NCBI GenBank assembly: GCA_963848965.1
Contig: CAWKFG010000001.1
Span: forward strand, 192,001 to 256,000
From: an uncultured bacterium
GTDB taxonomy: Bacteria; Babelota; Babeliae; Babelales; Babelaceae
Direction: 5' to 3'
DNA length: 64,000 nt
In this document: piece after piece, positions 3 to 53,887 of the stretch
Numbering within the stretch: position 1 is the first letter of the stretch
Layout: the number at the start of each line of letters is the position of its first letter
Notes under the pieces: model-generated
Told to the model about the DNA's origin: nothing
Seen by the model: only the letters and a program-made list of their open reading frames with translations
Database searches by the model: none
Translations under genes and position numbers: made by a program

Positions 3-3000
3 TGCCTGCCAGCACATTTACAAGATTTAGCAAAGCAGCAAATAGCTGCTTTAGAAAAATTAAAAGTAGAGGTCAAAGCTGAGCCTGAACTTTTACATGC
101 ACTTACTCAAAAAGATTACACACGTGCTGTCAAGTTGTTAGAGCAGGGTGCAGATCCTAATACAAGTGGTGATACTGAAAAAACAGCACTTATGCTTGCA
201 GCTTCTCATGGTGCATGGCAAATGGTAAGTACTTTGCTTGAATGGGGTGCTCAAAAAGATAGAAAAGATTCTTTTGGTAATACGGCTCTTCACTATGGGG
301 TAGCTTCAGCCTCAAGCTTGTGTGTTTTAGGGCTCCTAGACCATGAGCTTGTAAATAGTACAAATAAAGAAGGGATAACCCCTCTTATACGTGCTATTTA
401 TGAGATAAAAGTTGCTGAGAGCAAAGAACAAGTACAAGAACTTATTATCGTTATTGGATGGCTTTTAAAGTTTGGTGCCTCTGTAAATGCACAAGATGCC
501 TATGGAGTAACGCCTTTAATGTTAGCTTGTAAATGCAATAGGCAAACTGATTTTATTATACAAGGTATTCGAGCTGTATTGGAACTCTTGGTTGAGTATA
601 AACCAGATTGTGATATGCAAGATTCTGAAGGTAATACTGCTTTAATACATGCTGTTTTATATAACCAATTATCCCTATTTAAATATTTACTACCTTTCTG
701 TGCTTATATGATAAGCAATAAAAAAGAAGAGACAGCTCTATCGCTTGCACAAAAAAGAGATGCTTCATCTATAAGAGACTCCATTATCGCATTTGATCAT
801 CAAAAGAAGGAATGGATAAAAGAACATGGTGGTACAGAGCTCATGTATGCTGTTTTCCATCGTATTATGCCTACTGTAAGAAGGCTTATTCAAGCACATG
901 TAGATGTTAATTTAAAAGATACTTATGGATGTACTGCTCTCTTGTATGCCATACAAAATAATGATTATGAAATAGTTAAAGAGTTAATGAAAGCTGGAGC
1001 AAAAGCAGGAGAGTATAAAACAGTAAATTGTGATGCACGGATAAAGGAACTCTTAAGACAAAATTTAAACAATTCTCAAGAAGAATCGGAAAAGAAAGAA
1101 AACGAGACCGTTGTAAACCAAGAGCTATTGAAAAAGCAGATTCTTGCAGATGAGCTTAATGAAGAGGGTAAGCTACTCTTTCAACGCTATAAAGAAAGTA
1201 AGAATGGTGATGGTGTTACTCCATTTATTTATGCAGTACAAGAAGGAAAATGTGCTGTAGTAAGGCAAATGTTAGAACTAGCTCCATCGATTACCTTTCA
1301 AAGAGATAATCAAAGGCAAGATTGTCTTCTTATTGCTTTGCAAAAGAGATATTTTGCTTTAGCTCGTATGATTATTGAGGGTTACTATAGTAATGAACAA
1401 GCATTAGAAACTTGTTTTAAACAGTGCTTAGAAGCTGTTTTTAAGAAAAAAGAGAACGAATACAGGCAAATGCTTCAGCTCATTGTAGATGTGTATCCCT
1501 CTTTACTTCAAAAAATTTTTCAGCATATTTTTGGTACCCCATATGAAGATTATCTTCAAAAAGCACTCGCAGAAAGGGCCTTTATACTTAGTGAATTCCA
1601 GCTTGGTAGCCTTCTTATGCTCGCTATAGCAAGTAAGAGTAATGTCTTTATTCAGAACATTATTGAAAGCTACCCTCATTATGTACATTATAAAGATCCT
1701 GAAAACAAGACGCTGCTTATGGTTGCTGCACAGGAGGGTAATCAGAGAGTTATTGGGCTCTTATATGAAAAAGGAGCCGATTTAGATGTTCAAGATAAAA
1801 GTGGAAAGACTGCTCTTGATTATGCGCTACAATGTCCACAAACTCTTGAATTTTTGCAAAATATATCGCTCAATAAAAGATTGAATGCTTTAAAAAAAGA
1901 GAGTGAAACAGAAAAGCAGAAATTTGAACAAAGACTAAAAGGGATAAAGGATCAAGAGATTGCAAATGAGCTTATAGTTGAAGATTGGAACGATCTGCTT
2001 GTTGCTGCTTATGATAATGATGTGCAAACTATCAAAAAAGAGCGAAGCAAAATAAATCAAGCAAGGGGGCATGGTATTACTGCTTTAATGGTAGCAGCTT
2101 ATAAAAACAATCTAGAGGCATGTGAAACTCTTCTTGCATGCCCAGGAATAGGAATAAATAATCAAGATAAAGAAGGCCATACTGCGTTGATATACGCGGC
2201 TAAACAGGGTCATCTGCGTATTGTTCAGCTTCTTATAAAGGCGGGAGCTTGGGGGCTTATCTTAGATAGCAATAAACAAGTTCCTTTAAAGTTGGTCCAC
2301 TCTCTTGCTGTATCTTCGATGATGAAAGAGCTTCTTGCTGATAAACTTGTTGAAGAGTCCACTATGATAGCACTTGCAGTACCAGAAACAAACACTATTA
2401 ATTACTCGAAAATGAGACCTCTTTTAGAACTTTTATCATTAGAAGACCAAGGTTACTTTATTGTGAAGCTTGCAGAAAGAATATTTGATAAATATGCACA
2501 GAGGCAACTATGTGTTGACTGTGGAAAAGTTCATAGAGATAAGTGGGGAGACCTATTTTTAATGGAACTTATTTCTGCTGCAGGATCTAGGGCTCTAAGA
2601 GTCATGGATAATTTAAAAAAATGGCATGTTGACGCTTGTATTTTTCAAGATAAGCAGAGTCGCGCTCTCTTTCCAGAAGCTCTAGTGTTAGGAATTAAAA
2701 AGTGGCTTAGAGTAAAAGGAAAAGAATTAAGAGATGCCTCAAAAGATCAGGATGTAAGAGATATTATTAATAAGCTTATTTTTAAAGTAAACTTTCATAA
2801 GCTGCCTCAAGAGTATAAATCTCATTTGTTAAAAAGCATTGCCGAGGATGAAGAAAATGACAGCCCAAGAACTGCTCTGTGTAAACAACTTCTGCAAGAG
2901 AAATGCATTAACTCTGATTTTAGCTATAAAGAATATATTATTAAGATAGAGATACCTTCTATGATTAAAATGGCTTTATTTGCGGTATTTGTCTTTTGTA

Positions 3001-5150: not shown

Positions 5151-5474
5151 TTATTTTACTTTTTGAAAGCGCGCTACTTTTTTGCCTTCGTATTCAACAG
5201 GTTCAAGCCAAGCATCAAGATCTCGCACCCATACAATGTCATCACCATAGAGTGCTTTATAGATAACGCATATCTTTTCTGTAGCTTCTTGAATACCTAT
5301 ATTAATTACTTCGTATTGAAGTTTAGGATTGCGGTAGTGACTATAAATAGCACCAACTTCTACTTTTCCTTGTGCATCTTGGCGTCGTGCAGTGAGCTCT
5401 TCAAGTGATGTATGACTCATAGTATCCTTCATAAATAAACTTAAACATGCGATAACAACATATCTGTTAATCAT
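5151..5474 (-). CDS. DUF1653 domain protein
   Basis: GAIYSHYRN..YEVI...EATE..VIYKALYG..VWVRDL..W......RF. The start at 5474 makes an ATGA overlap with the upstream stop. Confidence 0.8.
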   Translation of the reverse strand: MINRYVVIACLSLFMKDTMSHTSLEELTARRQDAQGKVEVGAIYSHYRNPKLQYEVINIGIQEATEKICVIYKALYGDDIVWVRDLDAWLEPVEYEGKKVARFQKVK

Positions 5475-7528
5475 AGTGTACCTTCGATTTTGAGCTCTTT
5501 TTCTTTTATATTCCTCAATATACATGAAGCTTGATCTAACAAGCTGTCATGAAAGCCCTCTTGGCGCAATATATCAAGAGCAACATTCTGATGAGAAACA
5601 CCTCGTGTAATTTTGAACGGATAAATAATTTTTCCGGTTTCAGCTACCAAGACTGATTGTTTATAGTTAGCAAAGTTCTGCGTTTTTTCTTCAAGTGTAG
5701 TAAGAAGTTTGGAGTGTGTAGATAGGATAGAAATGATGTTCTCATCTTTGCCTAAATATTCAGCAACACTATAGGCTATTGCATCACCTTCTATGCTGGA
5801 AGTTCCGTTAAAAGGCTCATCAAGAGCAATGAACACATTTTTGCCTGAACCGGTTATTTCACGCTGTTTCATAATTGCTTGCATACGATTTACTTGTGCT
5901 TTGAATAATGAGTTTCCTGAAGCAATATCATCAATAATGTTTAGATAAGTCTCAATACAACTAAAGGGCGATATAAGAGCTTCTTTAGCAGGTGCAATAC
6001 CTAAGCTTTGAGAAAGAATGAGCGAGAATGTTAATGCTTTAATGAGTGTCGATTTACCTCCTGCGTTAGGACCTGTAATAACACTATTGCGTGGTTGCTC
6101 ACCGCCTAGTTCAAGTGAGTTTACTACTATTTTGTGATCCTCTTTTTCTTTTATAAAAGGGTTCCAAAAGTCTTTTAATACAATATGGGGACCTTTAGTG
6201 CTAAATTGAGTGAACGTGTAGGTTGCTTCCTTATGTTCAAACTCTTTATACAATCGTGCTACTGATAGATAAGCGTCAATTTCGCCGACAGCTGCCCATG
6301 CTTGAGCAAGATGTTCTTTAACTTTGTGCATAAGCTCATATGCTATAAGAATTCTTCCTTGATTTGAAAAGAAAGAAGGTTCATCAATAAACGTAGAAGT
6401 TTGTAGCAGCCGTATAAGCTCGCCTAGCGGAGTATTATGGTTAACTGCTTCACGTACATGAGTGAGAGCAGGCAAAGATGTGATAGAGTTTTTGAGCGTA
6501 AGATTATTTTCTTCTAGTGATGCAAGCTGATTGAGTGCTTCGATAAAACGAGCTACGCAAATAAGTTTTATTTGTAAGCATTTCTGTAAATAGATATTAT
6601 CTTTGAACCACTCAAAGTCTTCTTTGAGTGATACTGCACAGTAGGCTCCTACGGCACATGTTGCCAGCTCTGCAATATATTTGTTTCTTGCGTGAGAAAA
6701 AAATGCGAGTGTTCTACCAGCAGATCCCTTGAGCCAATCAGTAGTATAAGCGAATTTTTGAGGTAAAACATAATTGCATTGCTTTCCAAGAGCATCAAGA
6801 GGCAAAAGAGCTATTGCTGCTAACGTTGTAAGGAAATACGTAAAGCGCTGGTTGTGCCCAGATAGACTTCTGAATGTCAAAGCAATCTCACTTTGGTTAA
6901 GCATCTCATTGAGTCCAGTAAAATAGGGAATATTATAATGCTGTCTCAGTGTTGGATTTCTAAAATGATCGTTGCCCCAAAAAGAAAATATAATATCTTG
7001 GCTAGCTCGTATTTTTTCTAATGTTTCTTTGAGTTTGTTTGCAAGAATTTCATTATTGACAAGCTCTTTAACAATGGATTGGCGCCGGAGGAGCTCTGGT
7101 ATATCATCTGTAACAGATGCTATCAAACCGCTCAGTTTCGCTTTCCCTATTTCAGTAGTTGTACGATCTACAATTTCTAAAAGGCACTTATCGGGATAGA
7201 GTTTTCCTGCAAAAAGATCAAGATCGTCCCACGTGGCAGTGTCACCTAAAATACCTGCATGGTTAAAATGAGCTTTTTCTGCTAAGTTTAAAAGTCGTAA
7301 TGCAATGGTACGTCGCTTTTGTGGCGTAGGATTTGTTTGAGTTCGCATACAACGCTCAAGAAATTTGCCATATGCTTCATTTGGCCAATCTTCATCTTCT
7401 GCCCACTCAAATGAATGCATGCTAAACGGTCTAATAACATCGTAAAGTAAAGCTTGTTCTTCTGCCTGTACTATACTGCCTCGTTGTGCCCAGCATATAA
7501 TGCCAAACATTACCACTTTTTTAAACAT
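5471..7528 (-). CDS. MutS-family ATPase (domains III and V only) with N-terminal signal peptide
   Basis: ITGPNAGGKST Walker A, SLFKAQV, ALDEPFNGTS, STH motifs. No recognisable mismatch-binding domain I. Confidence 0.85.
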   Translation of the reverse strand: MFKKVVMFGIICWAQRGSIVQAEEQALLYDVIRPFSMHSFEWAEDEDWPNEAYGKFLERCMRTQTNPTPQKRRTIALRLLNLAEKAHFNHAGILGDTATWDDLDLFAGKLYPDKCLLEIVDRTTTEIGKAKLSGLIASVTDDIPELLRRQSIVKELVNNEILANKLKETLEKIRASQDIIFSFWGNDHFRNPTLRQHYNIPYFTGLNEMLNQSEIALTFRSLSGHNQRFTYFLTTLAAIALLPLDALGKQCNYVLPQKFAYTTDWLKGSAGRTLAFFSHARNKYIAELATCAVGAYCAVSLKEDFEWFKDNIYLQKCLQIKLICVARFIEALNQLASLEENNLTLKNSITSLPALTHVREAVNHNTPLGELIRLLQTSTFIDEPSFFSNQGRILIAYELMHKVKEHLAQAWAAVGEIDAYLSVARLYKEFEHKEATYTFTQFSTKGPHIVLKDFWNPFIKEKEDHKIVVNSLELGGEQPRNSVITGPNAGGKSTLIKALTFSLILSQSLGIAPAKEALISPFSCIETYLNIIDDIASGNSLFKAQVNRMQAIMKQREITGSGKNVFIALDEPFNGTSSIEGDAIAYSVAEYLGKDENIISILSTHSKLLTTLEEKTQNFANYKQSVLVAETGKIIYPFKITRGVSHQNVALDILRQEGFHDSLLDQASCILRNIKEKELKIEGTL

Positions 7529-8582: not shown

Positions 8583-9740
8583 TCAAAAGTTGGTTGATTG
8601 AGAATGTTTAGATGTTTGTTGGTGTTGTGAGAGCTGATATCTATAAGTAAAGGCTTTATGGCATTCTTTACAAATATAGGGCTTTTCTTTAGTATGTAAC
8701 CTCGTGTGTGCCTCTAAGCTAGTTTTATTAAGAAAGCCTGTCTTACACCCAGGGTAATTGCAAGGGTAGGGCAGTAGGGACTGGGATTTATACACTTGTC
8801 CATCGAAAACAGTGGACATTTCTTTAAAAGTATATGTGGAACATGGATTTTTCTTTAAAGGATATGTATTAGGTGTATTTGTAGATAATTTTGAATCTTG
8901 GGGATGTAGTTTTTGCTGATGTCTTTGTAATTGTTTTCTATGGCTAAATGAGTCGCCGCATTCTTTACAAACATAAGACTTTGTATCTGTATGGCCGTTT
9001 TTATGATCTTTTAAGCTAGCTTTTTGCATAAAAGATTTGGTACAACTAGGATAATCGCATTTATAAGGCTTTTCACCTGTATGCATGCTCTTATTCAATG
9101 AACCGTTATTATCAATGACTTGTTCGTTATCTGTTTGACCAACGATACCGTTAGTAAGTTTTTCATTTAGGCTGTCCCTATCATCTCGTAGGTCGAACTC
9201 AAATAGTAAGTTACCAGCGTTAGATATGTCTTTTTCTTTTCTGTTACCGAGATCTATGCTAGGGACTTCATCTTCATGAAGAAAAGAATAATGCTTTTTA
9301 AGATCTTCAGATGTTGAAAAAGCAAATGAACATAATTTACAGGTATAAGCGTATGTTTCTTTGGCAGAAAAAAGAGAGTAAATGATAGGAGGAGATAAAG
9401 GTGACACTGCTTCTTTGTTTGAGGTAATGTTAGTACTATCTTGTATATCCCATATTTGTTTATGAGATGAATAAAGAGGTTCATGCGTAACAGGACAATC
9501 ATTTGTATTGTTTAGTTCAAAGCTAAGATCGGGAGTATTTAAGGGTTGGTCAAGATTATCAATACTATTGAGTAAAAAAGAAATACTATTTTTATCTTTA
9601 AAAGAAGTATCTAGTTTATGACGTTTGAGAATATTATATGTGCTAGTATCAGATAATGGTCTTTTAGAAGATCCTTCTTGCATGCACTTAAGAGTACAAG
9701 AGAGAAAAAGTGTTGAAAGAAAGATAATTGCTTTTTTCAT
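8583..9740 (-). CDS. Secreted C2H2 zinc-finger protein (5 fingers)
   Basis: Signal peptide MKKAIIFLSTLFLSCTLKC, KRP...KRHK basic patch, five C-x2/4-C-x12-H-x3-5-H fingers, HTGEKPY/HTKEKPY linkers. Confidence 0.85.
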   Translation of the reverse strand: MKKAIIFLSTLFLSCTLKCMQEGSSKRPLSDTSTYNILKRHKLDTSFKDKNSISFLLNSIDNLDQPLNTPDLSFELNNTNDCPVTHEPLYSSHKQIWDIQDSTNITSNKEAVSPLSPPIIYSLFSAKETYAYTCKLCSFAFSTSEDLKKHYSFLHEDEVPSIDLGNRKEKDISNAGNLLFEFDLRDDRDSLNEKLTNGIVGQTDNEQVIDNNGSLNKSMHTGEKPYKCDYPSCTKSFMQKASLKDHKNGHTDTKSYVCKECGDSFSHRKQLQRHQQKLHPQDSKLSTNTPNTYPLKKNPCSTYTFKEMSTVFDGQVYKSQSLLPYPCNYPGCKTGFLNKTSLEAHTRLHTKEKPYICKECHKAFTYRYQLSQHQQTSKHSQSTNF

Positions 9741-39819: not shown

Positions 39820-40179
39820 ATGAAGAAATGTCTTATTATGGCTCTAGCTTTAGGAATGGCAGCACCTCTTTTTTCAATGGAACCTGGTCAATCTGGAGTT
39901 TCAAATCCTTTCCGTATAGAACGAGCAAAAAAAAGAGCTATGCTAGAAGCTACAAGGCAACAGCTTATGGCTGTTATTCAGCAGTTGGAAGGTAACCTCA
40001 AAGCACAGCAAGTTCAGACAGTTTTTGGAAGACCAAGACCTGATCTTACTGCTCTACAAACGCAGGTAGCAGTTCTTAGACAACAGCTTGCTGGTGTCGA
40101 AAAAGAGCTTGTTGCTTTAACACAACAAGGCCCTGGTCTAGCTCGTGGACAGCAACAACGTACACAAAGCACTCGATAA
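39820..40179 (+). CDS. Small secreted coiled-coil hypothetical protein
   Basis: AAGGAG RBS, signal peptide, Gln-rich heptads. Confidence 0.7.
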   Translation: MKKCLIMALALGMAAPLFSMEPGQSGVSNPFRIERAKKRAMLEATRQQLMAVIQQLEGNLKAQQVQTVFGRPRPDLTALQTQVAVLRQQLAGVEKELVALTQQGPGLARGQQQRTQSTR

Positions 40180-41032: not shown

Positions 41033-41098
41033 TTAAGTATGAGTACGTATATGCGCTCTTAAATTACTAGAAGAGGTAAAGGCTTTATCACATTCATT
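41033..41098 (-). pseudogene. Orphan terminal zinc-finger fragment ([21 protein letters not shown])
   Basis: Direct translation. Followed by the GCAAGAAGCTT tail seen after intact array genes. Confidence 0.8.
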
Positions 41099-41945
41099 AA
41101 GCTTGAGGACAGCGGTGCTTATCTAAGTATAGTTGTGCAGAAAAAGTTCTTTTACATTGTTTACATGTAGCTGTCTTTTGCTTTTCATGAGTAGTTTTAT
41201 GCGCTGCTAAATTAGCCGGATTAATGAACTTTTTATCACATTGGACACAGAGGTGCTGTGCTTCTTCTTTCTTATGTAGTGCTGGTTTGTTCTTGATCAG
41301 AATCTCAACCTCCATACTTTCTGAATCTTCATCTGTAAAAGAGGAATCTTCTCTGTCATTTAAATAATAGTCCTCATCGTCTGAAGAGTCGTACTTCTGC
41401 TTTTTCAATGGTCTGGCCTGCTGTACTTTTTTTAATGCCGCCTTATCCTTTGAATTAGTGCTAATCTGTGTGTCTTCTTTGTGAGGATTGTTAGGAATCC
41501 TACGTTTCTGATCTACCGCTTTAGCTAGCTTTTTGCTTGCTTTACTTGTAGAATTCTCGTTGTTTTGCTGACTTCTTACATTGCCTAGTGTTGATACCAT
41601 CCTCTTTACTAATAACATAGGAGACGGTGTTACAGAAGCTGTTAAGTTATTTTGTTTGTAATAGCTGTTATCGCCTTGAGATAGCGGCTGCTCTTGAAAA
41701 TCAGTTGTATATGATTCTTCTTCTGTCTCACTATCCGCGTGCTGCATGTTTTCTTTTTCTTCTGCGTGAAGGATGGTGATGTGTAATTCTAGATCTTCTT
41801 TTTGCGTAAATTGTAAAGAACATTGCTCACATGCGTATGCTAGCTCTTGATTACTCACTAAATCCTTTTGTCCTTCTGAGCATTGTTCCATTCCATAGAG
41901 AGTGGTTACTGTACCCCAGAGCAAAAGCATTACAATCTTATTCAT
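41097..41945 (-). CDS. Secreted divergent C2H2 zinc-finger protein (2 C2H2 + 1 C2HC)
   Basis: Signal peptide, CEQC..HITILH, CVQC..HKTTH, CKQC..HRC, RPLKKQK basic patch, acidic tract. Confidence 0.8.
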   Translation of the reverse strand: MNKIVMLLLWGTVTTLYGMEQCSEGQKDLVSNQELAYACEQCSLQFTQKEDLELHITILHAEEKENMQHADSETEEESYTTDFQEQPLSQGDNSYYKQNNLTASVTPSPMLLVKRMVSTLGNVRSQQNNENSTSKASKKLAKAVDQKRRIPNNPHKEDTQISTNSKDKAALKKVQQARPLKKQKYDSSDDEDYYLNDREDSSFTDEDSESMEVEILIKNKPALHKKEEAQHLCVQCDKKFINPANLAAHKTTHEKQKTATCKQCKRTFSAQLYLDKHRCPQA

Positions 41946-42092: not shown

Positions 42093-42797
42093 TTACGTGT
42101 TATGAACTTTTTGATGTATTGTTAATTGACCAGAAGTAATGAAGGTTTTACTGCACTCAGTACATACATATGGTTTTTCTCCTGTATGAGTACGTATGTG
42201 CCTTGTTAAAGTACTGGAATCAGCAAAAGTTTTATCGCATTCATTACATACATATGGCTTTATACCAGTATGAGTACGCATATGTATTGTTAATTGGTCA
42301 GACTGAGTAAAAGCTTTATGACATTCAGTACAAACATAGGGTCTTTCTTCGGTATGAGTACGTACGTGTTTTGTTAAGTCACTAGCAGTAGTAAAAGCTT
42401 TGTCGCATTCAGTACAGACATAAGGCTTTTCACCAGTATGACTACGCATATGTGATGTTAAACTATCAGTTCGAGCAAAAGCTTTATGACATTCATTACA
42501 AACATAGGGTCTTTCTCCAGTATGAGTGTATATATGCCTTGTTAACTTGCTAGAAGTAGCGAAAGTTTTACCACATTCAATACATATATGCTCTTTTTTT
42601 TGTCTCTTATGATTAACAGCAGAGTCAACATCATTTTGAGAAGCGTGAAGACGTTTTCTAGAGAGAATAGGTGTGTCATCAGATATGTCTTCTAGTGCTG
42701 TATCTGGTTGTTGAGTGTTATTAGTACCTCTATCTTCTTGCATAGAATAAATAAAATGAGAAAATAAGCAGAGTAAGAATAAAGAGAGCGTTTTCAT
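42093..42797 (-). CDS. Secreted tandem C2H2 zinc-finger protein, 6 fingers
   Basis: Signal peptide, RKR...KRQKK, and 28-aa repeats with TGE[KR]P linkers. Confidence 0.95.
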   Translation of the reverse strand: MKTLSLFLLCLFSHFIYSMQEDRGTNNTQQPDTALEDISDDTPILSRKRLHASQNDVDSAVNHKRQKKEHICIECGKTFATSSKLTRHIYTHTGERPYVCNECHKAFARTDSLTSHMRSHTGEKPYVCTECDKAFTTASDLTKHVRTHTEERPYVCTECHKAFTQSDQLTIHMRTHTGIKPYVCNECDKTFADSSTLTRHIRTHTGEKPYVCTECSKTFITSGQLTIHQKVHNT

Positions 42798-42900
42798 TGG
42801 ATACCTAATGTTTTATTAGAAAACTTATTGTTTAGGTCTTTAAATATAATTATATAGCTTGAAAATAAAAGTGCAAGTAAGAGCACTCAAAGCTTCTTGC
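42798..42900 (-). repeat. 103-bp intergenic promoter unit, copy 1 (type A)
   Basis: Near-identical to 43519-43621 and 48792-48894. Contains TTGCAC-16-TATAAT on the minus strand. Confidence 0.9.
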
Positions 42901-43518
42901 TTAAGTATGAGTATGCATGTGCCTTGTTAACTTACTAGATTCAGCAAAAGCTTTATCACATTCGTTACATACATAAGGCTTTTCACCAGTATGAGTACGC
43001 ATATGTAATGTTAAACTATCAGCTCGAGTAAAAGCTTTATCACATTCAGTACAAACATAGGGTCTTTCTCCGGTATGAGTACGCATATGTTTTGTTAAAG
43101 TACTAGAATTGGTAAAAGCTTTATCACATTTAGTACATATATACGGCTTTTCTCCTGTATGTGTTAGTATATGTTGTGTTAAATTACCAGATTTAGTAAA
43201 AGCTTTATTACATTCACTACATACATACGGTCTTTCTCCGGTATGTGTTAGTATATGTACTGTTAAACTACTAGAATTGGTAAAAGCTTTATCACATTCA
43301 ATACATATATGCTCTTTTTTTTGTCTCTTATGAATAACTGCGGAGTCAACATCATTTTGAGAAGCGTAAGGGCGTTTTCTAGAGAGAATAGGCGCGTCAT
43401 CAGATATGTCTTCTGTTGCTGTATCTGGTTGTTGAGTGTTATTAGTACCTCTATCTTCTTGCATAGAATAAATAAAATGAGAAAATAAGCAGAGTAAGAA
43501 TAAAGAGAGCGTTTTCAT
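42901..43518 (-). CDS. Secreted tandem C2H2 zinc-finger protein, 5 fingers
   Basis: Same architecture as 42093..42797. Confidence 0.95.
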
Positions 43519-43621
43519 TGGATACCTAATGTTTTATTAGAAAACTTATTGTTTAGGTCTTTAAATATAATTATATAACTTGAAAATAAAAGTGCAAGTA
43601 AGAGCATTCAAAGCTTCTTGC
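43519..43621 (-). repeat. 103-bp intergenic promoter unit, copy 2 (type A)
   Basis: Near-identical to 42798-42900. Confidence 0.9.
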
Positions 43622-44827
43622 TTAAGTATGATTACGCATATGCTTTGTTAAATTACCAGCTTGTGCAAAAGCCTTATTACATTCAGCACAAGTGTAAGGC
43701 TTTTCACCGGTATGAGTACGAATGTGCTCTTTTAGTAGATAAGAACGAGTAAAAGCTTTATCACATTCATTACAAACATAGGGTCTTTCATCAGTATGAC
43801 TACGCATATGCTGTGTTAAATTACCAGGTTGTGTAAAGGCTTTATCACATTCAGTACATACATATGGTTTTTCTCCTGTATGACTATGCATATGTATTGT
43901 TAAATGGCCAGACTGAGTAAAAGCTTTGTCACATTCAGTACATACATAAGGCTTTATACCAGTATGAGTACGCATATGTATTGTTAAGGAGCTAGAGTCA
44001 GCAAAGGCTTTATTACATTCACTACAAACATAGGGCTTTTCATCAGTATGAGTACGCATATGCTGTGTTAAATTACCAGATTGTGTAAAGGCTTTATCAC
44101 ATTCACTACATACATATGGTTTTTCTCCTGTATGACTACGCATATGTTTTGTTAAAGTACTGGAATCGGCAAAGAATTTATTGCACTCAGTACATACGTA
44201 TGGTTTGTCACCTGTATGCATACGCATATGTAGTGTTAACTTGCTAGACTCAGCGAAAGCTTTATCACATTCGTTACAAACATAAGGCTTTTCACCAGTA
44301 TGAGTACGCATATGCTGTGTTAAATTACCAGGTTGTGTAAAGGCTTTATCACATTCAGTACATACATATGGTTTTTCTCCTGTATGACTACGCATATGTT
44401 TTGTTAAAGTACTGGAATCGGCAAAGGATTTATTGCACTCAGTACATACATATGGTTTTTCACCAGTATGAGTACGCATGTGTAGTGTTAAATTACCAGC
44501 TTGTGCAAAAGCCTTATTACATTCAGCACAAGTGTAAGGCTTTTCACCGGTATGAGTACGAATGTGCAGTTTTAGTAGATAAGAACGAGTAAAAGCTTTA
44601 CCACATTCAATACATATGTGCTCTTTTTTTTGTCTCTTATCATTAACTGCGGAGTCAATATCATTTTGAAAGTTAGAAGGGCGTTTTCTAGAGAGAATAG
44701 GTGCGTCATCAGATAGATCTTCTAGTGCTGTATCTGGTTGTTGAGTTTCATTTGTGCTAATAGCTTCTTGCATAGAGTAAGTAAAAGGAAAGAATAAGCA
44801 AAGTAAAAATAAAGAGAATGTTTTCAT
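43622..44827 (-). CDS. Secreted tandem C2H2 zinc-finger protein, 12 fingers
   Basis: Same architecture, with internally duplicated fingers (RSYLL-QAGNL pair twice, DSSTLTK-Q[PS]GNLTQ pair twice). Confidence 0.95.
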
Positions 44828-44930
44828 CAAAGACCTACCATCTTATTGGGAAATTTTTTGAGCAAATATTTAAATATAATTATATAAATTGAAAATAAAA
44901 TTGCAAGTAAGAGCATCCAAGACTTCTTGC
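44828..44930 (-). repeat. 103-bp intergenic promoter unit, copy 3 (type B)
   Basis: Closest to 47819-47921. Shares the TTTAAATATAATTATAT..TGAAAATAAAA.TGCAAGTAAGAGCA..CTTCTTGC core with type A. Confidence 0.85.
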
Positions 44931-45734
44931 TTAAGTATGAGTACGCATATGCCTTGTTAAATTACTAGAAGTTGTGAAAGCGTTATCACACTCGGTGCAC
45001 TTATAGGGCCTTTCTCGTGTGTGACTATACATATGTGCTATTAAGTGGCTAGAAGTAGTAAAAGCTCTATTGCATTCATTACATACATACGGCTTTTCTC
45101 CTGTATGTGTTAGTATATGCTTTGCTAAGTTACTAGACTCTGCAAAAGTTTTACCACACTCGTTACATACATACGGCTTCTCACCCGTATGAGTACGCAT
45201 ATGTATTGTTAATTTACCAGATTGTGCAAAAGCTTTATCGCATTCATTACATTTATAAGGTTTTTCTCTTGTATGCGTACGTATATGCTTTGTTAAATCG
45301 CCAGATTCAGCAAAAGCTTTGTTACATTCAGTACATATATATGGCTTTTCGCCTGTATGACCGCGCATATGTAATGTTAAAGAACTAGACTGAGTAAAAG
45401 CTTTATTGCATTCAGGACATATATAGGGCTTTTCTCCTGTATGAGTACGCATATGTACTGTTAAATTTCTAGAGGTTGTAAAAGCTTTATCACATTCATT
45501 ACACTTAAAGGGCCTTTCCCCTGTATGCGTACGCATATGTATCGCCAACTTACTAGGAACACTAAAAGCCTTATTACATTCAACACATATATGTCGTAGC
45601 TTACTTCTTTTATGTCCTCTTTCTTCTTGAGACTCTATCTCACTCTCTTCTCTTTCTCTTTTTGTAGTCTCTCTTTCCATTGCATTGAGCAGACTTACTA
45701 TGAAAAAAAGAGTAAATATCACTATTTTTCTCAT
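44931..45734 (-). CDS. Secreted tandem C2H2 zinc-finger protein, 8 fingers, distinct N-terminus
   Basis: Signal peptide [22 protein letters not shown]...HKRSK, 8 fingers. Confidence 0.95.
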
Positions 45735-45825
45735 ATATTATTCCTTATTATAATATGTAAGGTATCATTAGACTTATGGCAGCATTCCTCACATAGAGCT
45801 TTATACAAAGGTAAGCCTAGAATTA

Positions 45826-46542
45826 TTATTTTGAAAACACGAAATCGAGACTTCCAGAATGGGCCTTGAGCGTAAATGAATTAACTACCCATTGCTTTTT
45901 TGCATCAGCAGAAACTATTTGAAGTTGCTTGCTAAGACGGTGTTTAAGGATATGAACCATATTTTGCGGGTCTCTATCTTTATCTTCATAAAGCTTGCCA
46001 ATAGTAAGATGCATATCAAAATAAGGAAACTGGCCTAAGCTGTCCTGTATCGATTGCGCCACATGAGTAAGCGCAGGTGAAGAAGGAAATCGTAGTACAA
46101 TATAATAAAAATTCTTTTTAGGTATCCCCTTGTAGACATTGCCTTTGTCTCTATCTCCTTTAAAGCAAGTAAATTCTACTGCTTTAAGGTTTTCCGTAAG
46201 ATCAATAGCCCTTGTTTCTTTAGCAATCTTTTCAAGAGCTGGAATATTATATTTCTGCTTTTCCAATAACTGCTTAAGTGTTAACTGAGCATCTGTAATA
46301 TACGCAAGCGATATGTGTGAAGCATACTGGGGAGCATCAAATAGATATTTTATATGCCCTGGTTTGGTCTTTTGTGCTTCATTTTCATGATCAATAATCT
46401 CTTTGACTTGCTCTTGGACTACATGCACAAATTCTTGTACCACCGTAGGTGGCTCAATTAATACGATGACTCCACCAAAAAGATTACTCATGGTTATACA
46501 GAAAATAAGCATTAAAATTAACTTACAATGTGAGCTATACAT
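45826..46542 (-). CDS. Putative secreted 2H phosphoesterase (2'-5' RNA ligase-like fold)
   Basis: Two H-x-[ST]-h motifs (HISL, HLTI) about 100 aa apart. Hydrophobic N-terminus from ATG 46542 (AGGA RBS). Confidence 0.65.
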   Translation of the reverse strand: MYSSHCKLILMLIFCITMSNLFGGVIVLIEPPTVVQEFVHVVQEQVKEIIDHENEAQKTKPGHIKYLFDAPQYASHISLAYITDAQLTLKQLLEKQKYNIPALEKIAKETRAIDLTENLKAVEFTCFKGDRDKGNVYKGIPKKNFYYIVLRFPSSPALTHVAQSIQDSLGQFPYFDMHLTIGKLYEDKDRDPQNMVHILKHRLSKQLQIVSADAKKQWVVNSFTLKAHSGSLDFVFSK

Positions 46543-46664
46543 GGTATATCCTAGATAAATGATTCTATTTAATATATTCTCTATATTACATTTTAATGAT
46601 AATTTGTCAATAATATTAATGGTTAAAGGTATGCTGACGCAAAGCAAATAAAGTAGTGCCCTAC

Positions 46665-46757
46665 TTACTGTTGAGTCTCATTGGAGATAGTAGTTTCTTG
46701 CATAGAATAAGTACAAGGAACGAATATGAAAAGTAAAAGAAGATAGAATATTTGCAT
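46665..46757 (-). pseudogene. Truncated zinc-finger gene head (signal peptide only, MQIFYLLLLFIFVPCTYSMQETTISNETQQ*)
   Basis: Aligns with [31 protein letters not shown] degenerate promoter unit lies upstream (46758-46830). Confidence 0.8.
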
Positions 46758-46862
46758 AGTGCTTAGTCTCTTATTAGAAAGGTTATTGTATAAATGCTTA
46801 AATATAATTATATAATTTGAAAATAAAAAGTAAATGGTTGTCAGAGATAGTACTTTACAGTT

Positions 46863-47032
46863 TTACTTCTTATGAGTGAGCATATGATTTTTAAATTACC
46901 AGATTGAGTAAAAGATCTATCGTACTCAGTGCATACAAAATGCTTTTCTCTAGTATGGGTTCGCATGTGCTATTTCAGTTTATCAGAACGAGCAAAAGCT
47001 TTGTTATATTCAGTACAGACGTAAGGTTGCTC
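46863..47032 (-). pseudogene. Two decayed zinc fingers downstream of the 47033 stop codon
   Basis: Reads EQPYVCTEYNKAFARSDKLK*HMRTHTREKHFVCTEYDRSFTQSGNLK(fs)HMLTHKK*. Confidence 0.85.
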
Positions 47033-47818
47033 TCATGTATGAGTATGCATGTGCCTTGTTAAATTACCAGATTGTGCAAAGGCTTTATTGCATTCACTAC
47101 AAACATAAGGTTTTTCACCACTATGGGTACGTATGTGTTGTGTTAAAGTACTGGAATCGGCAAAGAATTTATTGCACTCAGTACATACGTATGGTTTTTC
47201 ACCAGTATGAGTACGTACGTGTTTTGTTAATTTACCAGCAGTGGTAAAAGCTTTGTCGCATTCAGTACATACATAAGGCTTTATACCAGTATGAGTACGC
47301 ATATGTTTTGTTAATTGGCCAGACTCGGCAAAAGCTTTGTTGCATTCAGTACATGCATAAGTCTTTTCACCGGTATGACTACGCATATGTGATGTTAAAC
47401 TATCAGTTCGAGCAAAAGCTTTATCACATTCAGTACATACATAAGGCTTTATACCAGTATGAGTATGTACGTGTTTTGTTAAGTCACCAGCACTAGTAAA
47501 AGCTTTGTTGCATTCAGTACATACATAAGGCTTTTCACCGGTATGACTACGCATATGTCGTGTTAAACTATCAGAACGGGTAAAAAGTTTATCACATTCA
47601 GTGCAGGCATATTCTTTTTTCTGTTTCTTTTGATTAACCGGAGATTCGATATCATTGTGAGCAGAATAAAGCCGTTTTTTAGGTAATATGGGTATCTCAT
47701 CAGATAGGTCTTCTGTAATAGACTTATCTTGTTGAGCCTCATTGGCGCTAATAGCTTCTTGCATAGAGTAAGCAAAAGGAAAGAATAAGCAAAGTAAAAA
47801 TAAAGAAAACGTTTTCAT
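47033..47818 (-). CDS. Secreted tandem C2H2 zinc-finger protein, 7 intact fingers
   Basis: Signal peptide and PKKR...QKKQKK. Ends at a TGA where the linker Gly is expected. Confidence 0.95.
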   Translation of the reverse strand: MKTFSLFLLCLFFPFAYSMQEAISANEAQQDKSITEDLSDEIPILPKKRLYSAHNDIESPVNQKKQKKEYACTECDKLFTRSDSLTRHMRSHTGEKPYVCTECNKAFTSAGDLTKHVHTHTGIKPYVCTECDKAFARTDSLTSHMRSHTGEKTYACTECNKAFAESGQLTKHMRTHTGIKPYVCTECDKAFTTAGKLTKHVRTHTGEKPYVCTECNKFFADSSTLTQHIRTHSGEKPYVCSECNKAFAQSGNLTRHMHTHT

Positions 47819-47921
47819 CAAAGACCTATCATCTTATTAGGAAATTTTTTGAGTAAATATTTAAATATAATTATATGGCATGAAAATAAAAGTGCAAGTA
47901 AGAGCATTCAAAGCTTCTTGC
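47819..47921 (-). repeat. 103-bp intergenic promoter unit, copy 4 (type B)
   Basis: Similar to 44828-44930. Confidence 0.85.
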
Positions 47922-48791
47922 TTAAGTATGAGTACGCATGTGCTTTGTTAAACCACTGGAATCGGCAAAAGCTTTACCGCATTCACTACATATATAAGGT
48001 TTTTCACCAGTATGAGTACGCATATGTACTGTTAATTTACTAGAGGTGCTAAAAGCTTTATCACATTCAGTACAGACATAAGGCTTTTCACCAGTATGAG
48101 TGCGCATATGTATTGTTAATTGGTCAGACTGAGTAAAAGCTTTATGACATTCATTACAAACATAGGGTCTTTCTTCGGTATGAGTACGTACGTGTTTTGT
48201 TAAGTCACTAGCAGTAGTAAAAGCTTTGTCGCATTCAGTACATGTATAAGGCTTTTCACCAGTATGAGTACGCATATGTACTGTTAATTTACTAGAGGTG
48301 GTAAAAGCTTTATGACATTCAGTACAAACATAGGGTCTTTCTCCGGTATGGGTACGTACGTGTTGTGTTAATTCGCCAGCAGTAGTAAAAGCTTTGTCGC
48401 ATTCAGTACAGACATAAGGCTTTTCACCAGTATGACTACGCATATGTTTTGTTAAACTATCAGTTCGAGTAAAAGCTTTACTACATTCGTTACATACATA
48501 AGGCTTTTCACCAGTATGAGTGTATATATGCCTTGTTAACTTGCTAGAAGTAGCGAAAGTTTTACCACATTCAATACATATATGCTCTTTTTTTTGTCTC
48601 TTATGATTAACAGCAGAGTCAACATCATTTTGAGAAGCGTGAAGACGTTTTCTAGAGAGAATAGGTGTGTCATCAGATATGTCTTCTAGTGCTGTATCTG
48701 GTTGTTGAGTGTTATTAGTACCTTTATCTTCTTGCATAGAATAAATAAAATGAGAAAATAAGCAAAGTAAGAATAAAGAGAGCGTTTTCAT
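47922..48791 (-). CDS. Secreted tandem C2H2 zinc-finger protein, 8 fingers
   Basis: The first ~95 aa are nearly identical to 42093..42797. Confidence 0.95.
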
Positions 48792-48894
48792 TGGATACCT
48801 AATGTTTTATTAGAAAACTTATTGTTTAGGTCTTTAAATATAATTATATAGCTTGAAAATAAAAGTGCAAGTAAGAGCATTCAAAGCTTCTTGC
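48792..48894 (-). repeat. 103-bp intergenic promoter unit, copy 5 (type A)
   Basis: Near-identical to 42798-42900. Confidence 0.9.
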
Positions 48895-49848
48895 TTAAGT
48901 ATGAGTACGCATATGCCGTGTTAATTTGCTAGACTCAGCAAAAGCTTTATAACATTCATTACATATATATGGTTTTTCGCCTGTATGACTATGCATATGT
49001 TTTGTTAAAGTACTTGAATCGGCAAAGAATTTATTGCATTCATTACAAACATAAGGTTTTTCACCAGTATGAGTACGCATATGTACTGTTAATTTACTAG
49101 AGGTGGTAAAAGCTTTGCTACATTCATTACAGACGTATGGCTTTTCATCAGTATGAGTACGAATATGTACTATTAATTTACTAGAGGTGGTAAAAGCTTT
49201 ATCACATTCAGTACATGCATAAGGCTTTTCACCAGTATGAGTACGCATGTGTAGTGTTAAATTACCAGCTTGTGCAAAAGCCTTATTACATTCAGCACAA
49301 GTATAAGGCTTTTCACCGGTATGAGTACGCATATGTAATGTTAAAGAACTAGACTGAGTAAAAGCTTTATTGCATTCAGTACATATATAAGGCTTTTCAC
49401 CAGTATGACTACGCATATGTAATGTTAAACTGTCAGCTCGAGCAAAAGCTTTATCACATTCAGTACAAACATAAAACTTTTCACCAGTATGAATACTTAT
49501 ATGTTTTGTTAATTGGCTAGACTGAGTAAAAGCTTTATCACATTCGTTACATACATAAGGTTTTTCACCAGTATGAGTGTATATATGCCTTGTTAACCTG
49601 CTAGAGGTAGCGAAAGCTTTACCACATTCAATACATATGTGCTCTTTTTTCTGTTTCTTTTGATTAACCGGGGATTCGATATCATTGTGAGTAGAATAAA
49701 GCCGTTTTTTAGGTACTATGGGTATCTCATCAGATAGGTCTTCTGTAATAGACTTATCTTGTTGAGCCTCATTTGTGCTAGTAGCTTCTTGCATAGTATA
49801 AGCTAAAGGAAAAAATATGCAAAGTAAGAAAAGAAAGAACATTTTCAT
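48895..49848 (-). CDS. Secreted tandem C2H2 zinc-finger protein, 9 fingers
   Basis: Signal peptide from ATG 49848. N-terminal spacer shared with 47033..47818. Confidence 0.95.
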
Positions 49849-50059
49849 AGTGCCCATTATCATATTAGAAAATTTATTGTGCAAATGCCTGTCTATAATT
49901 ATATAATTTAAAAATAAAAATGCAAATGCGTGGTTTCAAGATGTGTATACTATAAGCAATCAGGTGTAGAAAAAAAGAAAGAATACTTATTCTTGCTATT
50001 TGTTAAAAGATCTTGGGATACTACCTATGTAAAGAGTTCTATTAAAGGGAGAGCTAGCA

Positions 50060-50482
50060 ATGAGGCATGGACTGCGAGAAGAGATTTTAGAAGCTTGTAA
50101 TAAGTGTATTGTAAGTTGTGAAGAATGTGTAAAATTAGCGCGCCGTTGCTTGGGTACTTGTGAATCATCAGAAGCATCTGCTTGTAAAGAGATGGTTCAA
50201 AAGTATATTGAACATTGTAAAAAATGCATTGAAGCATGTAGAGCGTGTATAGATATATGTAATGAAGGTATTAAGCTTGCTGAAAATGATGAAGAAGCCC
50301 ACTTTTTACAAAAATGTGTAGAAGCTTGTGGTGACTGTATTACTGCATGCCAAACAAGCATTGATAATTGTTCTGTACAAGTAAACTGCATACAGGCTAC
50401 AAAAGAATGTATAGAGCTCTGTAACGAATGTATATCTGCTTGTGATGAATGCATTGAGCATTTAGGCATTAGAGGATTGTAA
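50060..50482 (+). CDS. Cys-rich four-helix-bundle copper-storage-like protein (Csp/DUF326 family)
   Basis: Repeated CxxCxxxCxxC helices in 140 aa. Confidence 0.75.
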   Translation: MRHGLREEILEACNKCIVSCEECVKLARRCLGTCESSEASACKEMVQKYIEHCKKCIEACRACIDICNEGIKLAENDEEAHFLQKCVEACGDCITACQTSIDNCSVQVNCIQATKECIELCNECISACDECIEHLGIRGL

Positions 50483-51433
50483 TTGAAATAAACTGCTTGT
50501 CTTTGACAAGTGACCATGTAGGATGCATACGATGTGAGCCTGGACCGGGCCTATGCAAAAAACGAATTATTTCGTTAAAGAAGGGGTTAGTGGGAGTGAA
50601 GGGGACATTGGCTCTGCAGAGCCAGAGCACAAGAATGCGAGGGTACAAAAATGGATCAAAGGAAAAAAACTTTTCCTTATCAAGCCATAGCCGTCCCTCG
50701 CGCATGTGCGCCATAGTATCAAATGCTTTTTGAGCACAGTTCTCTAAAAAATCATCTGTTTCTTGAATATTCTTAAGTGTACTTAAAAAAGTTGTATCAA
50801 ATCTTTTATCACACTGCCTCAATGCTGGCAATAAAATATGGCGTATTCTATTGCGTAAATAGCTTTCAAGCATATTAGTGTAATCTTCTTTGTAGGCAAG
50901 GTTATGCTCTTTAAGATATTCTAGAATCTGTGCTTTTGTAACAGACAAAAGAGGGCGGATATACATACCTGCTTTAGGTCTCATACTTGCAAGGCCTGCA
51001 ATACTTGCTCCTCGAATAAAGCGTATAAAAAACGTTTCTTGTTGATCATCATAATGATGGCCCAGTGCTATAGCTTGAGCTCCATACTCTTGAGCTACAG
51101 ATTCTAAAAAGCAGCGCCGTAACATGCGGCCCAGCTCTTCTTGAGAGCCCTGTGGTACTTTTTCAAGCGTAATACTTGAAGCTTTTGTACTTACAAAAGG
51201 GATGCCAAGCTGCTCTGCAAAGTCAGCACAAAAGAGTGCATCTTCATGAGATTCTTTGCGCCATTCATGATCTAAGTGAGCCGCAATGAGCTTGAGGTGA
51301 TACTGATCCTTGAGAGTAAAAAGTATATGCAAAAGGCATACAGAGTCAGGACCACCAGAAAGCCCCACAACTACAGTAGTGTGGGGCTTTAAAAGATTAT
51401 GTTTATCTATATGAGCAGTGATTGAAGAAAGCA

Positions 51434-51434
<1 letters not shown>
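50469..51434 (-). CDS. tilS: tRNA(Ile)-lysidine synthetase
   Basis: GLSGGPDS, AHLDHEWR, LGHHYDDQQET, IRPLL, RNRIRH. Confidence 0.95.

Positions 51435-53887
<2,453 letters not shown>

Follow-up and report, generated by a model that had tools for sequence, protein, structure and literature searches.

On the minus strand of a 64,000-nucleotide stretch of DNA from an uncultured bacterium of the Babelaceae (the window; G000:C1:192001-256000, G000 being the genome under study), seven intact open reading frames (ORFs) of 205-401 amino acids (aa) each encode tandem arrays of C2H2 zinc fingers. These genes lie at positions 42093-49863, are named here by their lower coordinates in the window, and carry 55 fingers in total. 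Read from high to low coordinates, they are g48895 (48895..49863; 9 fingers), g47922 (47922..48791; 8 fingers), g47033 (47033..47818; 7 fingers), g44931 (44931..45734; 8 fingers), g43622 (43622..44827; 12 fingers), g42901 (42901..43518; 5 fingers) and g42093 (42093..42797; 6 fingers), the last gene of the array. The first ATG of g48895 is at 49863; position 49848, given as the end of the array in the preliminary description of this DNA, is the Met of the sixth codon (MKMFF...) and an alternative start. The host contig is 643 kb long, in a genome of 1.73 Mb, 5 contigs and 37% G+C. The array is directly adjoined by tilS and gyrB (50469-53845), so the locus belongs to a bacterium rather than to a stray contig of eukaryotic origin. 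Of the GyrB neighbours in the 120 rows listed, all 9 with an organism name are Candidatus Dependentiae or Babeliaceae, at 68-72% identity, and a relative with 92% GyrB identity exists (P0122).

Wherever two finger genes are adjacent, they are separated by exactly 103 bp. Comparison of the five minus-strand spacers (48792..48894, with a conserved TATAAT box; 47819..47921; 44828..44930; 43519..43621; and 42798..42900) found them to be alike, with two 3' subtypes that track the two leader types described below. We rejected the idea that the spacer is a decayed finger: its finger score is 9-10, compared with a shuffled mean of ~9.3.

Architecture of the finger proteins

Each protein starts with Met-Lys or Met-Arg, runs through a hydrophobic and then an acidic stretch into two basic clusters (RKR...KRQKK), and continues with 5-12 fingers. 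The zinc ligands C-x2-C-x12-H-x3-H, a Phe at position 9 and a Leu at +4 are kept in 55/55 fingers. All 48 internal units are 28 aa (84 nt) long, and only the 7 terminal units differ. Linkers read exactly TGEKP in 28 of 48 cases, the other 20 being one- or two-residue variants. Pfam searches with the two proteins scanned, g48895 and g44931, returned PF13465 (zf-H2C2_2; E 2.8e-75 and 7.6e-67, respectively) and PF00096 (zf-C2H2; E 5.1e-65 and 1.5e-62), in agreement with the classical Krüppel type. Among the matches at E <=0.001 (for g44931, the best 25 of 27) there was no KRAB (PF01352), PR/SET or Ros/MucR (PF05443) domain and no TALE repeat; only zinc-finger families were found, and the repeat is 28 aa long.

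Over all finger pairs, entropy peaks at helix positions -1, +3 and +6 (2.6-3.0 bits) and is lower at +2. Over the same pairs, pN/pS is 0.79 at positions -1, 2, 3 and 6 compared with 0.32 elsewhere, values that are saturated and so give no evidence of positive selection. The finger framework is under purifying selection, with variability concentrated at the contact positions. The canonical framework together with the variability at -1, +3 and +6 suggests sequence-specific binding of double-stranded DNA.

The leaders reach a hydrophobicity maximum of 2.15-3.03 within the first 35 residues, with a basic residue (Lys or Arg) at position 2 or 7. At its end, the hydrophobic stretch carries Y-[ST]-M or N-A-M, and the next residue is Q or E; the leaders are signal-like by inspection. 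In the two main leader types, the putative mature start holds 7 Asp/Glu and 1 Lys/Arg per 28 residues. The basic clusters ahead of the first finger resemble a bipartite nuclear localisation signal (NLS).

Fingers shared between genes

The preliminary description held that the same fingers recur at different positions of different genes, and every recurrence that it listed was found in place. The pair TASDLTK-(TEERP)-QSDQLTI forms fingers F3-F4 of g42093 and F5-F6 of g47922; RTDSLTS occurs in g42093 F2 and g47033 F3, QSSSLTL in g44931 F3 and g48895 F4, RADSLTL in g42901 F4 and g48895 F3, and DSSTLTK in g43622 F3 and F6 and in g48895 F8. ESSKLTR is carried by the terminal finger of both g42901 and g48895, and one 18-residue finger segment is common to g43622 F2 and g48895 F5. 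Identical 7-residue helices account for 15 finger pairs, 12 of them cross-gene, whereas 2000 column shuffles gave 0.78 on average and 7 at most, and the 55 fingers carry 42 distinct recognition helices. Only one adjacent two-finger combination is common to different genes, so that shared fingers mostly stand beside new neighbours.

This sharing is also seen at the nucleotide level. The listed pairs are identical at 66-74 of 75 positions, compared with a median of 55/75 (73%) over all 1485 pairs, only 24 of which reach 69/75 or more; four listed cross-gene pairs are identical at 72-74/75. Codons that encode the same residue in both fingers are identical at 21/22 to 24/24 in 42093_F3/47922_F5, 42093_F4/47922_F6, 43622_F2/48895_F5 and 42901_F4/48895_F3, a level reached by at most 25 of the 1485 pairs. 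The pair 42093_F2/47033_F3 is intermediate (20/22; 118 of 1485 pairs are as high). Family-wide, the identity of same-residue codons is 0.738, as against 0.469 expected from genome codon usage, and hence all 55 fingers still show common descent or homogenisation.

When the 55 units were placed in a maximum-likelihood tree (75 columns, many forks unresolved), 31 changes of gene label were required, with a minimum of 6 and a shuffled mean of 36.9. Thus, the fingers do not cluster by gene of origin, which is spread nearly at random over the tree, and the strict clustering that would have spoken against the preliminary description was not seen. Of 52 inner branches, 14 are starred, and most of these join fingers of different genes. 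Clear clustering by gene was found only for g43622 (0/500 shuffles as low), and weaker clustering for g44931 (26/500), the outlier of the family, with long branches in this tree. Taken alone, the lack of clustering means no more than that the finger types predate the genes. We infer exchange because divergence is uneven between the same two genes.

Exchange tracts and mosaic leaders

Ungapped scanning identified 57 tracts that are in phase, 48-384 nt long and 89.6-100% identical, of which 49 are cross-gene. Patches that are 94-99% identical sit within flanks that are only 58-80% identical. Measured against in-register 84-nt flanks, in contrasts that are large but post hoc, since the tracts were picked as maxima, g48895 and g43622 share a patch of 103/104 (left flank 49/84, right flank 61/84), g48895 and g42901 one of 90/94 that covers g42901 F4 and g48895 F3 (63/84 and 53/84), g47922 and g42093 one of 151/153 (67/84 and 61/84), and g48895 and g44931 one of 96/102 at g44931 F2+44..F3+61 (54/84 and 63/84).

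Recombination or gene conversion through the conserved linker DNA, with single 84-bp fingers as the interchangeable modules, had been proposed as the process. Exchange between paralogs stood up, on the patches, the finger tree and the test for recombination given below, while the single-finger module did not: the tracts span about 0.6-4.6 units and are in phase, and their ends fall at many offsets. Nor can breakpoints be assigned to the linker, because tract ends are visible only at the variable helix codons. Many short tracts extend from the end of one helix to the start of the next, which is conserved framework plus linker, and were not counted as events. The genome encodes RecA. Loss of mismatch repair as the cause of exchange between diverged repeats was considered and rejected; MutL and MutS domains are present. 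As a separate observation, the MutS domain V family has ten loci over the cut-off in this 1.7-Mb genome, one of them in the window (5471-7528, minus strand), with one MutL match, and is unusually large for so small a genome.

The N-termini had also been described as mosaics, with g43622 joining a signal peptide of the g47033 type to a spacer of the g42093/g42901 type, and segment identities bear this out. g42093, g42901 and g47922 have leaders of type A, g47033 has type B, g43622 has a hybrid (B then A), g48895 joins a g47033-type leader to a first finger of the g47922/g42093 type, and the leader of g44931 is divergent. At -58..+75, g43622 is identical to g47033 at 125/134 positions, compared with 101-102/134 for the 42093 type, whereas at +76..+157 it matches the 42093/42901/47922 type at 69-70/82 and g47033 at 51/82. 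In g48895, positions +76..+197 match g47033 at 119/122, while +198..+291 match g47922 at 88/94 and g47033 at 64/94, which places a breakpoint at about +198. Fisher tests of these segment contrasts gave 1.8e-9, 5.4e-6, 3.3e-8 and, for the fourth, 0.087. The pairwise homoplasy index (PHI) of the colinear 5' part was 0.165, compared with 0.355 (sd 0.011) after permutation, and 0/2000 permutations were as low. Segment trees conflict, with g43622 joining g47033/g48895 at -58..75 (99/99) and the A-type genes at 76..197 (100/100). Together, the PHI test and the conflicting trees show recombination in the colinear 5' part.

Gain, loss and decay of fingers

Finger number changes within genes as well. 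g43622 contains a tandem three-finger duplication (F2+45..F5+9 versus F5+45..F8+9, 206/217), and its end repeats its own first two fingers (F1-F2 versus F11-F12, 121/124). Directly 3' of the g47033 stop lie two decayed fingers (46868..47032, minus strand), each with its second Cys changed to Tyr, and an internal stop is present; they score 57 against the finger consensus, compared with a shuffled mean of 8.3. Further downstream, behind a spacer-like stretch, is a 30-codon leader stub of another gene (46665..46757, minus strand; MQIFYLLLLFIFVPCTYSMQETTISNETQQ*), which is 77-81% identical by blastn to the spacer and leader of g47033, g48895 and g43622. The array of g47033 was shortened by a stop at a linker position, and one further gene copy was truncated. 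At the end of the array, F6 of g42093 is divergent (branch length 1.07).

Alternatives and opposing evidence

A number of observations weigh against recurrent exchange or against the functional part of our reading, beginning with the post hoc choice of the patches noted above. One of the listed recurrences is explained most simply without exchange. g42093 and g47922 are identical at 381/384 positions from the spacer into F1 and at 171/180 in register over F2-F4, after which their tails are unrelated, and the 151/153 match between g42093 F3-F4 and g47922 F5-F6 would then reflect two fingers gained or lost in one of two genes that are colinear elsewhere. This resembles what would be expected if the whole family arose by whole-gene duplication from one long ancestral array, after which the copies changed only by losing and gaining different fingers, with no transfer between paralogs. 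Matches are indeed colinear for every gene pair inspected, and the block duplications of g43622 and the truncation of g47033 demonstrate that finger number does vary within genes. However, duplication alone fits poorly with the non-uniform divergence of g48895 and g43622, which have the 103/104 patch between poorly matching flanks and a leader that ranges from 51/82 to 102/132, or with that of g48895 and g47033, nearly identical in the leader but not in the F1 segment; the PHI test and the conflicting segment trees count against it as well. It is therefore disfavoured, and we consider it quite improbable.

A second group of observations concerns synonymous positions. The codon identities of the QSSSLTL pair (19/22), of DSSTLTK in g43622 against 48895_F8 (17/21 and 17/22) and of the ESSKLTR pair (14/20) do not exceed the family background of 0.74, and that of ESSKLTR (42901_F5/48895_F9) lies below the median, its contact codons showing 4 synonymous differences and no non-synonymous one. 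Identical helices may thus have arisen by convergence on the same DNA triplets rather than by copying. For the ESSKLTR pair, an old copy under purifying selection fits equally well, and across the family the four best cross-gene pairs, at 21/22-24/24, and the extension of tracts past the helix argue for copying. Convergence is refuted as a general explanation by synonymous identity, and we give it little credence as such; it may hold for two or three older pairs.

Third, the genome is a metagenome-assembled genome (MAG) in which no 16S gene was found. The one sequencing run found, from soil, contains 7% of the sampled words of the sequence. The leaders contain exact repeats of 213, 161 and 114 nt and the arrays exact repeats of as much as 88 nt, so that gene or finger order could be partly wrong. 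The mosaics might then be artefacts of wrong joins inside repeats or of mixed strains. However, as judged from the patch and flank contrasts, if the sequences beyond a shared tract were exchanged, the tract would still stand between dissimilar flanks in either gene, and the patch pattern is thus independent of the joins. Moreover, tract identities are graded (89.6-100%), the seven frames are open with zinc ligands in 55/55 fingers, and the same pattern was found in two further assemblies (G070 and G069). We therefore regard an assembly artefact as very improbable.

The remaining points concern selection, expression, relatives and function. In 14 mutual-best finger pairs, the ratio of amino-acid to silent change was 0.40 in contact codons and 0.46 in the rest (Fisher p = 1.0), so there is no sign of diversifying selection and no excess of amino-acid change at the contacts of recent pairs, where dN/dS had been suggested as a check. 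Recently copied fingers keep their helices, and new arrays form by rearrangement of existing helices rather than by point change. A promoter scan flagged 1/5 spacers, with no enrichment (18 sites, compared with 36.8 in shuffles). A scan of metagenome contigs with the leader and F1 yielded 18 loci, all of which matched the finger only (residues 63-97), and a protein homologue search with leader residues 1-75 returned nothing that scored. A leader profile run against 1.84 billion representatives gave three matches, of which the best, of 77 aa, is the only convincing one, the two others being weak and in repetitive proteins. No related strain or species with this leader was found in these searches, and hence no turnover between strains was seen. 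Finally, the nuclear-signal and activation-domain readings were made by eye. The 77-aa match corresponds to a solo one-finger gene of the same genome (C1:123803-124066, plus strand), and this paralog has the same spacer and KRQKKEH junction as the array genes.

Weighing these points, we conclude that exchange between the paralogs, in stretches of one to three fingers, is real and recurrent, and that its unit, its breakpoints and its effect on binding are less clean and less firmly established than first proposed; the initial proposal is in this sense partly supported.

Finger arrays in the phylum

Linked fingers (PF13465) were found in 75 of 261 Dependentiae genomes, 23 of which exceed the curated cut-off, and in none of 14 control genomes. 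Twelve stretches from 10 other genomes contain 24 ORFs with at least two fingers; by eye, 22 of these 24 start with a basic residue and a hydrophobic stretch, and they often continue with acidic-hydrophobic segments and basic clusters. Tandem finger genes occur in G070 (six), G069 (five) and G255 (three). In G070, fingers identical at 75/75 positions lie at different positions of different genes, and the finger tree requires 24 label changes (minimum 5, shuffled 27.5); the corresponding values for G069 are 15 (minimum 4, shuffled 16.0). The cluster of G255 is old and colinear. For every finger of three genomes, the nearest neighbour is another finger of that genome (55/55, 41/41 and 26/26); each lineage has therefore expanded or homogenised its own finger set.

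The arrays are 50-63% identical to animal zinc-finger proteins (ZNFs) over 66-98% of the query. The fingers of the genome under study are no closer to animals than to their own phylum, with 14.9/23 identity to 10 sampled animal ZNFs and 15.1/23 to other Dependentiae fingers. A scan of viral contigs found one giant-virus locus, at 25% identity. C2H2 arrays are common in the phylum, and a link between them and Dependentiae was not found in the literature searched. Searches of freely available full texts yielded no paper on C2H2 arrays in Dependentiae, TM6 or Babel* taxa, and the sole text with both 'Dependentiae' and 'zinc finger' was a methyltransferase review with one occurrence of each. In the text of the Babela, TM6 comparative and Chromulinavorax papers, 'C2H2' occurs 0 times, and the word 'zinc' appears a single time in the Chromulinavorax paper (PMC6561590), where it describes a transporter, and 0 times in the TM6 paper (PMC4776705).

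Possible export and action on the host

It is possible, though rather unlikely, that the finger proteins are not host effectors and instead control genes of the bacterium itself, or have their targets, whether nucleic acids or proteins, in the periplasm or at the surface. Export and localisation are predicted from sequence only, and C2H2 fingers can also bind RNA or proteins. However, all 7 array proteins, and 15 of the 17 C2H2 ORFs of the genome, begin with a hydrophobic leader, which argues against a cytoplasmic regulator. The basic clusters ahead of the first finger and the canonical TGEKP linkers also speak for action on host DNA; such linkers are typical of DNA-binding arrays. The genome encodes three secretins and ATP/ADP translocases, and the reading of the proteins as nucleomodulins rests on these secretins and on the NLS-like basic clusters seen by eye, with delivery a prediction. 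According to published accounts, the phylum is known only as intracellular parasites of protists (PMC6561590), 44% of the Chromulinavorax coding sequences have a putative signal peptide (PMC6561590), and components of type II secretion are common to TM6 genomes (PMC4776705).

Combining these findings, we consider it probable that the locus is a tandem family of Krüppel-finger genes, with nucleotide-level mosaics and in-phase exchange, that encodes proteins predicted to be exported and to bind host DNA. The family probably grew by duplication of whole gene-plus-spacer units, with blocks of fingers duplicated and lost inside genes. In-phase non-allelic homologous exchange, by unequal crossing-over and short-tract gene conversion of ~50-380 nt, acted repeatedly between finger units and between leader modules, placing a limited set of helices in new orders and neighbourhoods. 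The leader would direct export via Sec, with release by a type II-like system or in vesicles, and the basic clusters would allow entry into the nucleus of the protist host. There, the array may read 15-36 bp of host DNA as a transcription-factor mimic, and the acidic stretch may serve as an activation domain. Reassorted fingers would change the target sites.

Comparison with known systems

The process had been likened to repeat turnover in PRDM9 and TALE genes, which is a fair analogy of process; it does not extend to family membership. PRDM9, a single gene, encodes KRAB and PR/SET domains and has repeats that hardly differ. Our genes resemble it in that the C2H2 units are 84 bp long and undergo unequal exchange and conversion in phase, with variation concentrated at -1, 3 and 6, but there are seven of them, with no such domains by Pfam, a median unit identity of 73% and no sign of positive selection in recent pairs. 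TAL effectors of Xanthomonas, and the related RipTALs and Bats, have nuclear localisation signals and an acidic domain, occur as several paralogs per genome, and change their repertoires via repeat recombination, duplication and deletion. Like them, the proteins described here are bacterial, consist of tandem repeats that are predicted to read DNA, and occur as several paralogs in one genome. They are unrelated in sequence and differ in using a 28-aa finger for ~3 bp rather than a 33-35-aa repeat for 1 bp, a predicted Sec-type leader rather than a type III secretion signal, an acidic stretch before rather than after the array, and presumably a protist rather than a plant host.

A single atypical finger in a cytoplasmic regulator, with neither a TGEKP-linked array nor a leader, characterises Ros/MucR, the likeness being a bacterial protein with a Cys2His2 zinc site. 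The mammalian C2H2/KRAB clusters (PMC2443715) are alike in their tandem poly-finger paralogs, lineage-specific expansion and finger gain and loss; the genes here are bacterial, have no KRAB domain, and have signal-like leaders and 103-bp spacers. MoHTR1 and MoHTR2 of Magnaporthe oryzae (PMC12488382), which this pathogen sends into the host nucleus, likewise have C2H2 fingers together with a signal peptide and a nuclear signal (both only predicted in the proteins described here), but belong to a eukaryotic pathogen, have few fingers and form no tandem recombining family. Within the same phylum, the ankyrin-repeat proteins of Chromulinavorax destructans join eukaryote-like repeats to signal peptides and are taken as secreted effectors that manipulate the host (PMC6561590); their repeats are ankyrin repeats rather than C2H2 fingers. 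The process that we describe is ordinary for tandem repeat families, and the setting is unusual: Krüppel-type arrays, apparently exported, in a bacterial phylum of protist parasites.

Neighbouring genes and additional observations

Within the array lies one unrelated, non-zinc-finger gene, g45826 (45826..46542, minus strand), which encodes 238 aa with a hydrophobic N-terminus. It matched no Pfam family. A sequence atlas points to LigT/2H phosphoesterases (score 0.93, 166 shared features), as a lead only, and two H-x-[ST]-x motifs (HISL and HLTI) can be seen by eye. The seven finger proteins have no exact match in a collection of 15 billion proteins, in which their neighbours g45826 and GyrB are present; they may be uncalled, or differently called, in public records.

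Beyond the last array gene is a further C2H2 gene (41097..41945, minus strand; PF00096, E 5.1e-9) with a signal-like leader and dispersed fingers split by a long acidic Ser-rich stretch. Other C2H2 genes of the genome lie at window positions 8583-9740 (C1:200583-201740), C1:78219-79064, C1:330542-332623 and C4:600065-600799, and in a second cluster (C1:611851-619643) of five genes, one of which encodes 1209 aa with 10 fingers. These mostly have hydrophobic leaders, but non-Krüppel spacing and linkers.

By a crude rule, 429 of the 1187 ORFs of at least 150 aa have a signal-like start. A [GSAC]-M-[EQDK] junction right after the hydrophobic stretch (residues 15-32) was seen in 140 of these 429, compared with 3/429 in a control window and 65/758 among other ORFs. 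In the window, the ORFs that carry it at their 5' ends include those at 39820, 41097-41945, 42093-42797 and 44931-45734, and a junction of a small residue, Met and a charged residue also occurs in other Dependentiae zinc-finger genes. A cleavage or sorting motif peculiar to the lineage is one possible explanation, and an internal start is another.

Implications

A wider reading, which we put forward tentatively and which falls somewhat short of probable, is that Dependentiae have a phylum-wide, fast-recombining repertoire of Sec-exported transcription-factor mimics that read 15-36 bp in protist nuclei, each made up of an activation-like acidic stretch, a nuclear signal and a poly-C2H2 array, with sets that every lineage expands and reshuffles for itself. 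If true, such mimics would parallel TAL effectors in nature, with zinc fingers of the eukaryotic type as their building blocks, and would be a second, TAL-independent way for bacteria to send modular DNA-reading proteins into the eukaryotic nucleus, using the finger module of the host's own kingdom. Such a repertoire could allow a quick change of host DNA targets, and the finger arrays would then record these targets and perhaps host range. The recognition rules of C2H2 fingers are partly known. Target sites would thus be predictable and searchable in protist genomes, which could help to name the hosts of uncultured Dependentiae. The locus itself offers a compact bacterial model of array evolution, in which gene duplication, block gain and loss, conversion patches, truncation and decay are found together.

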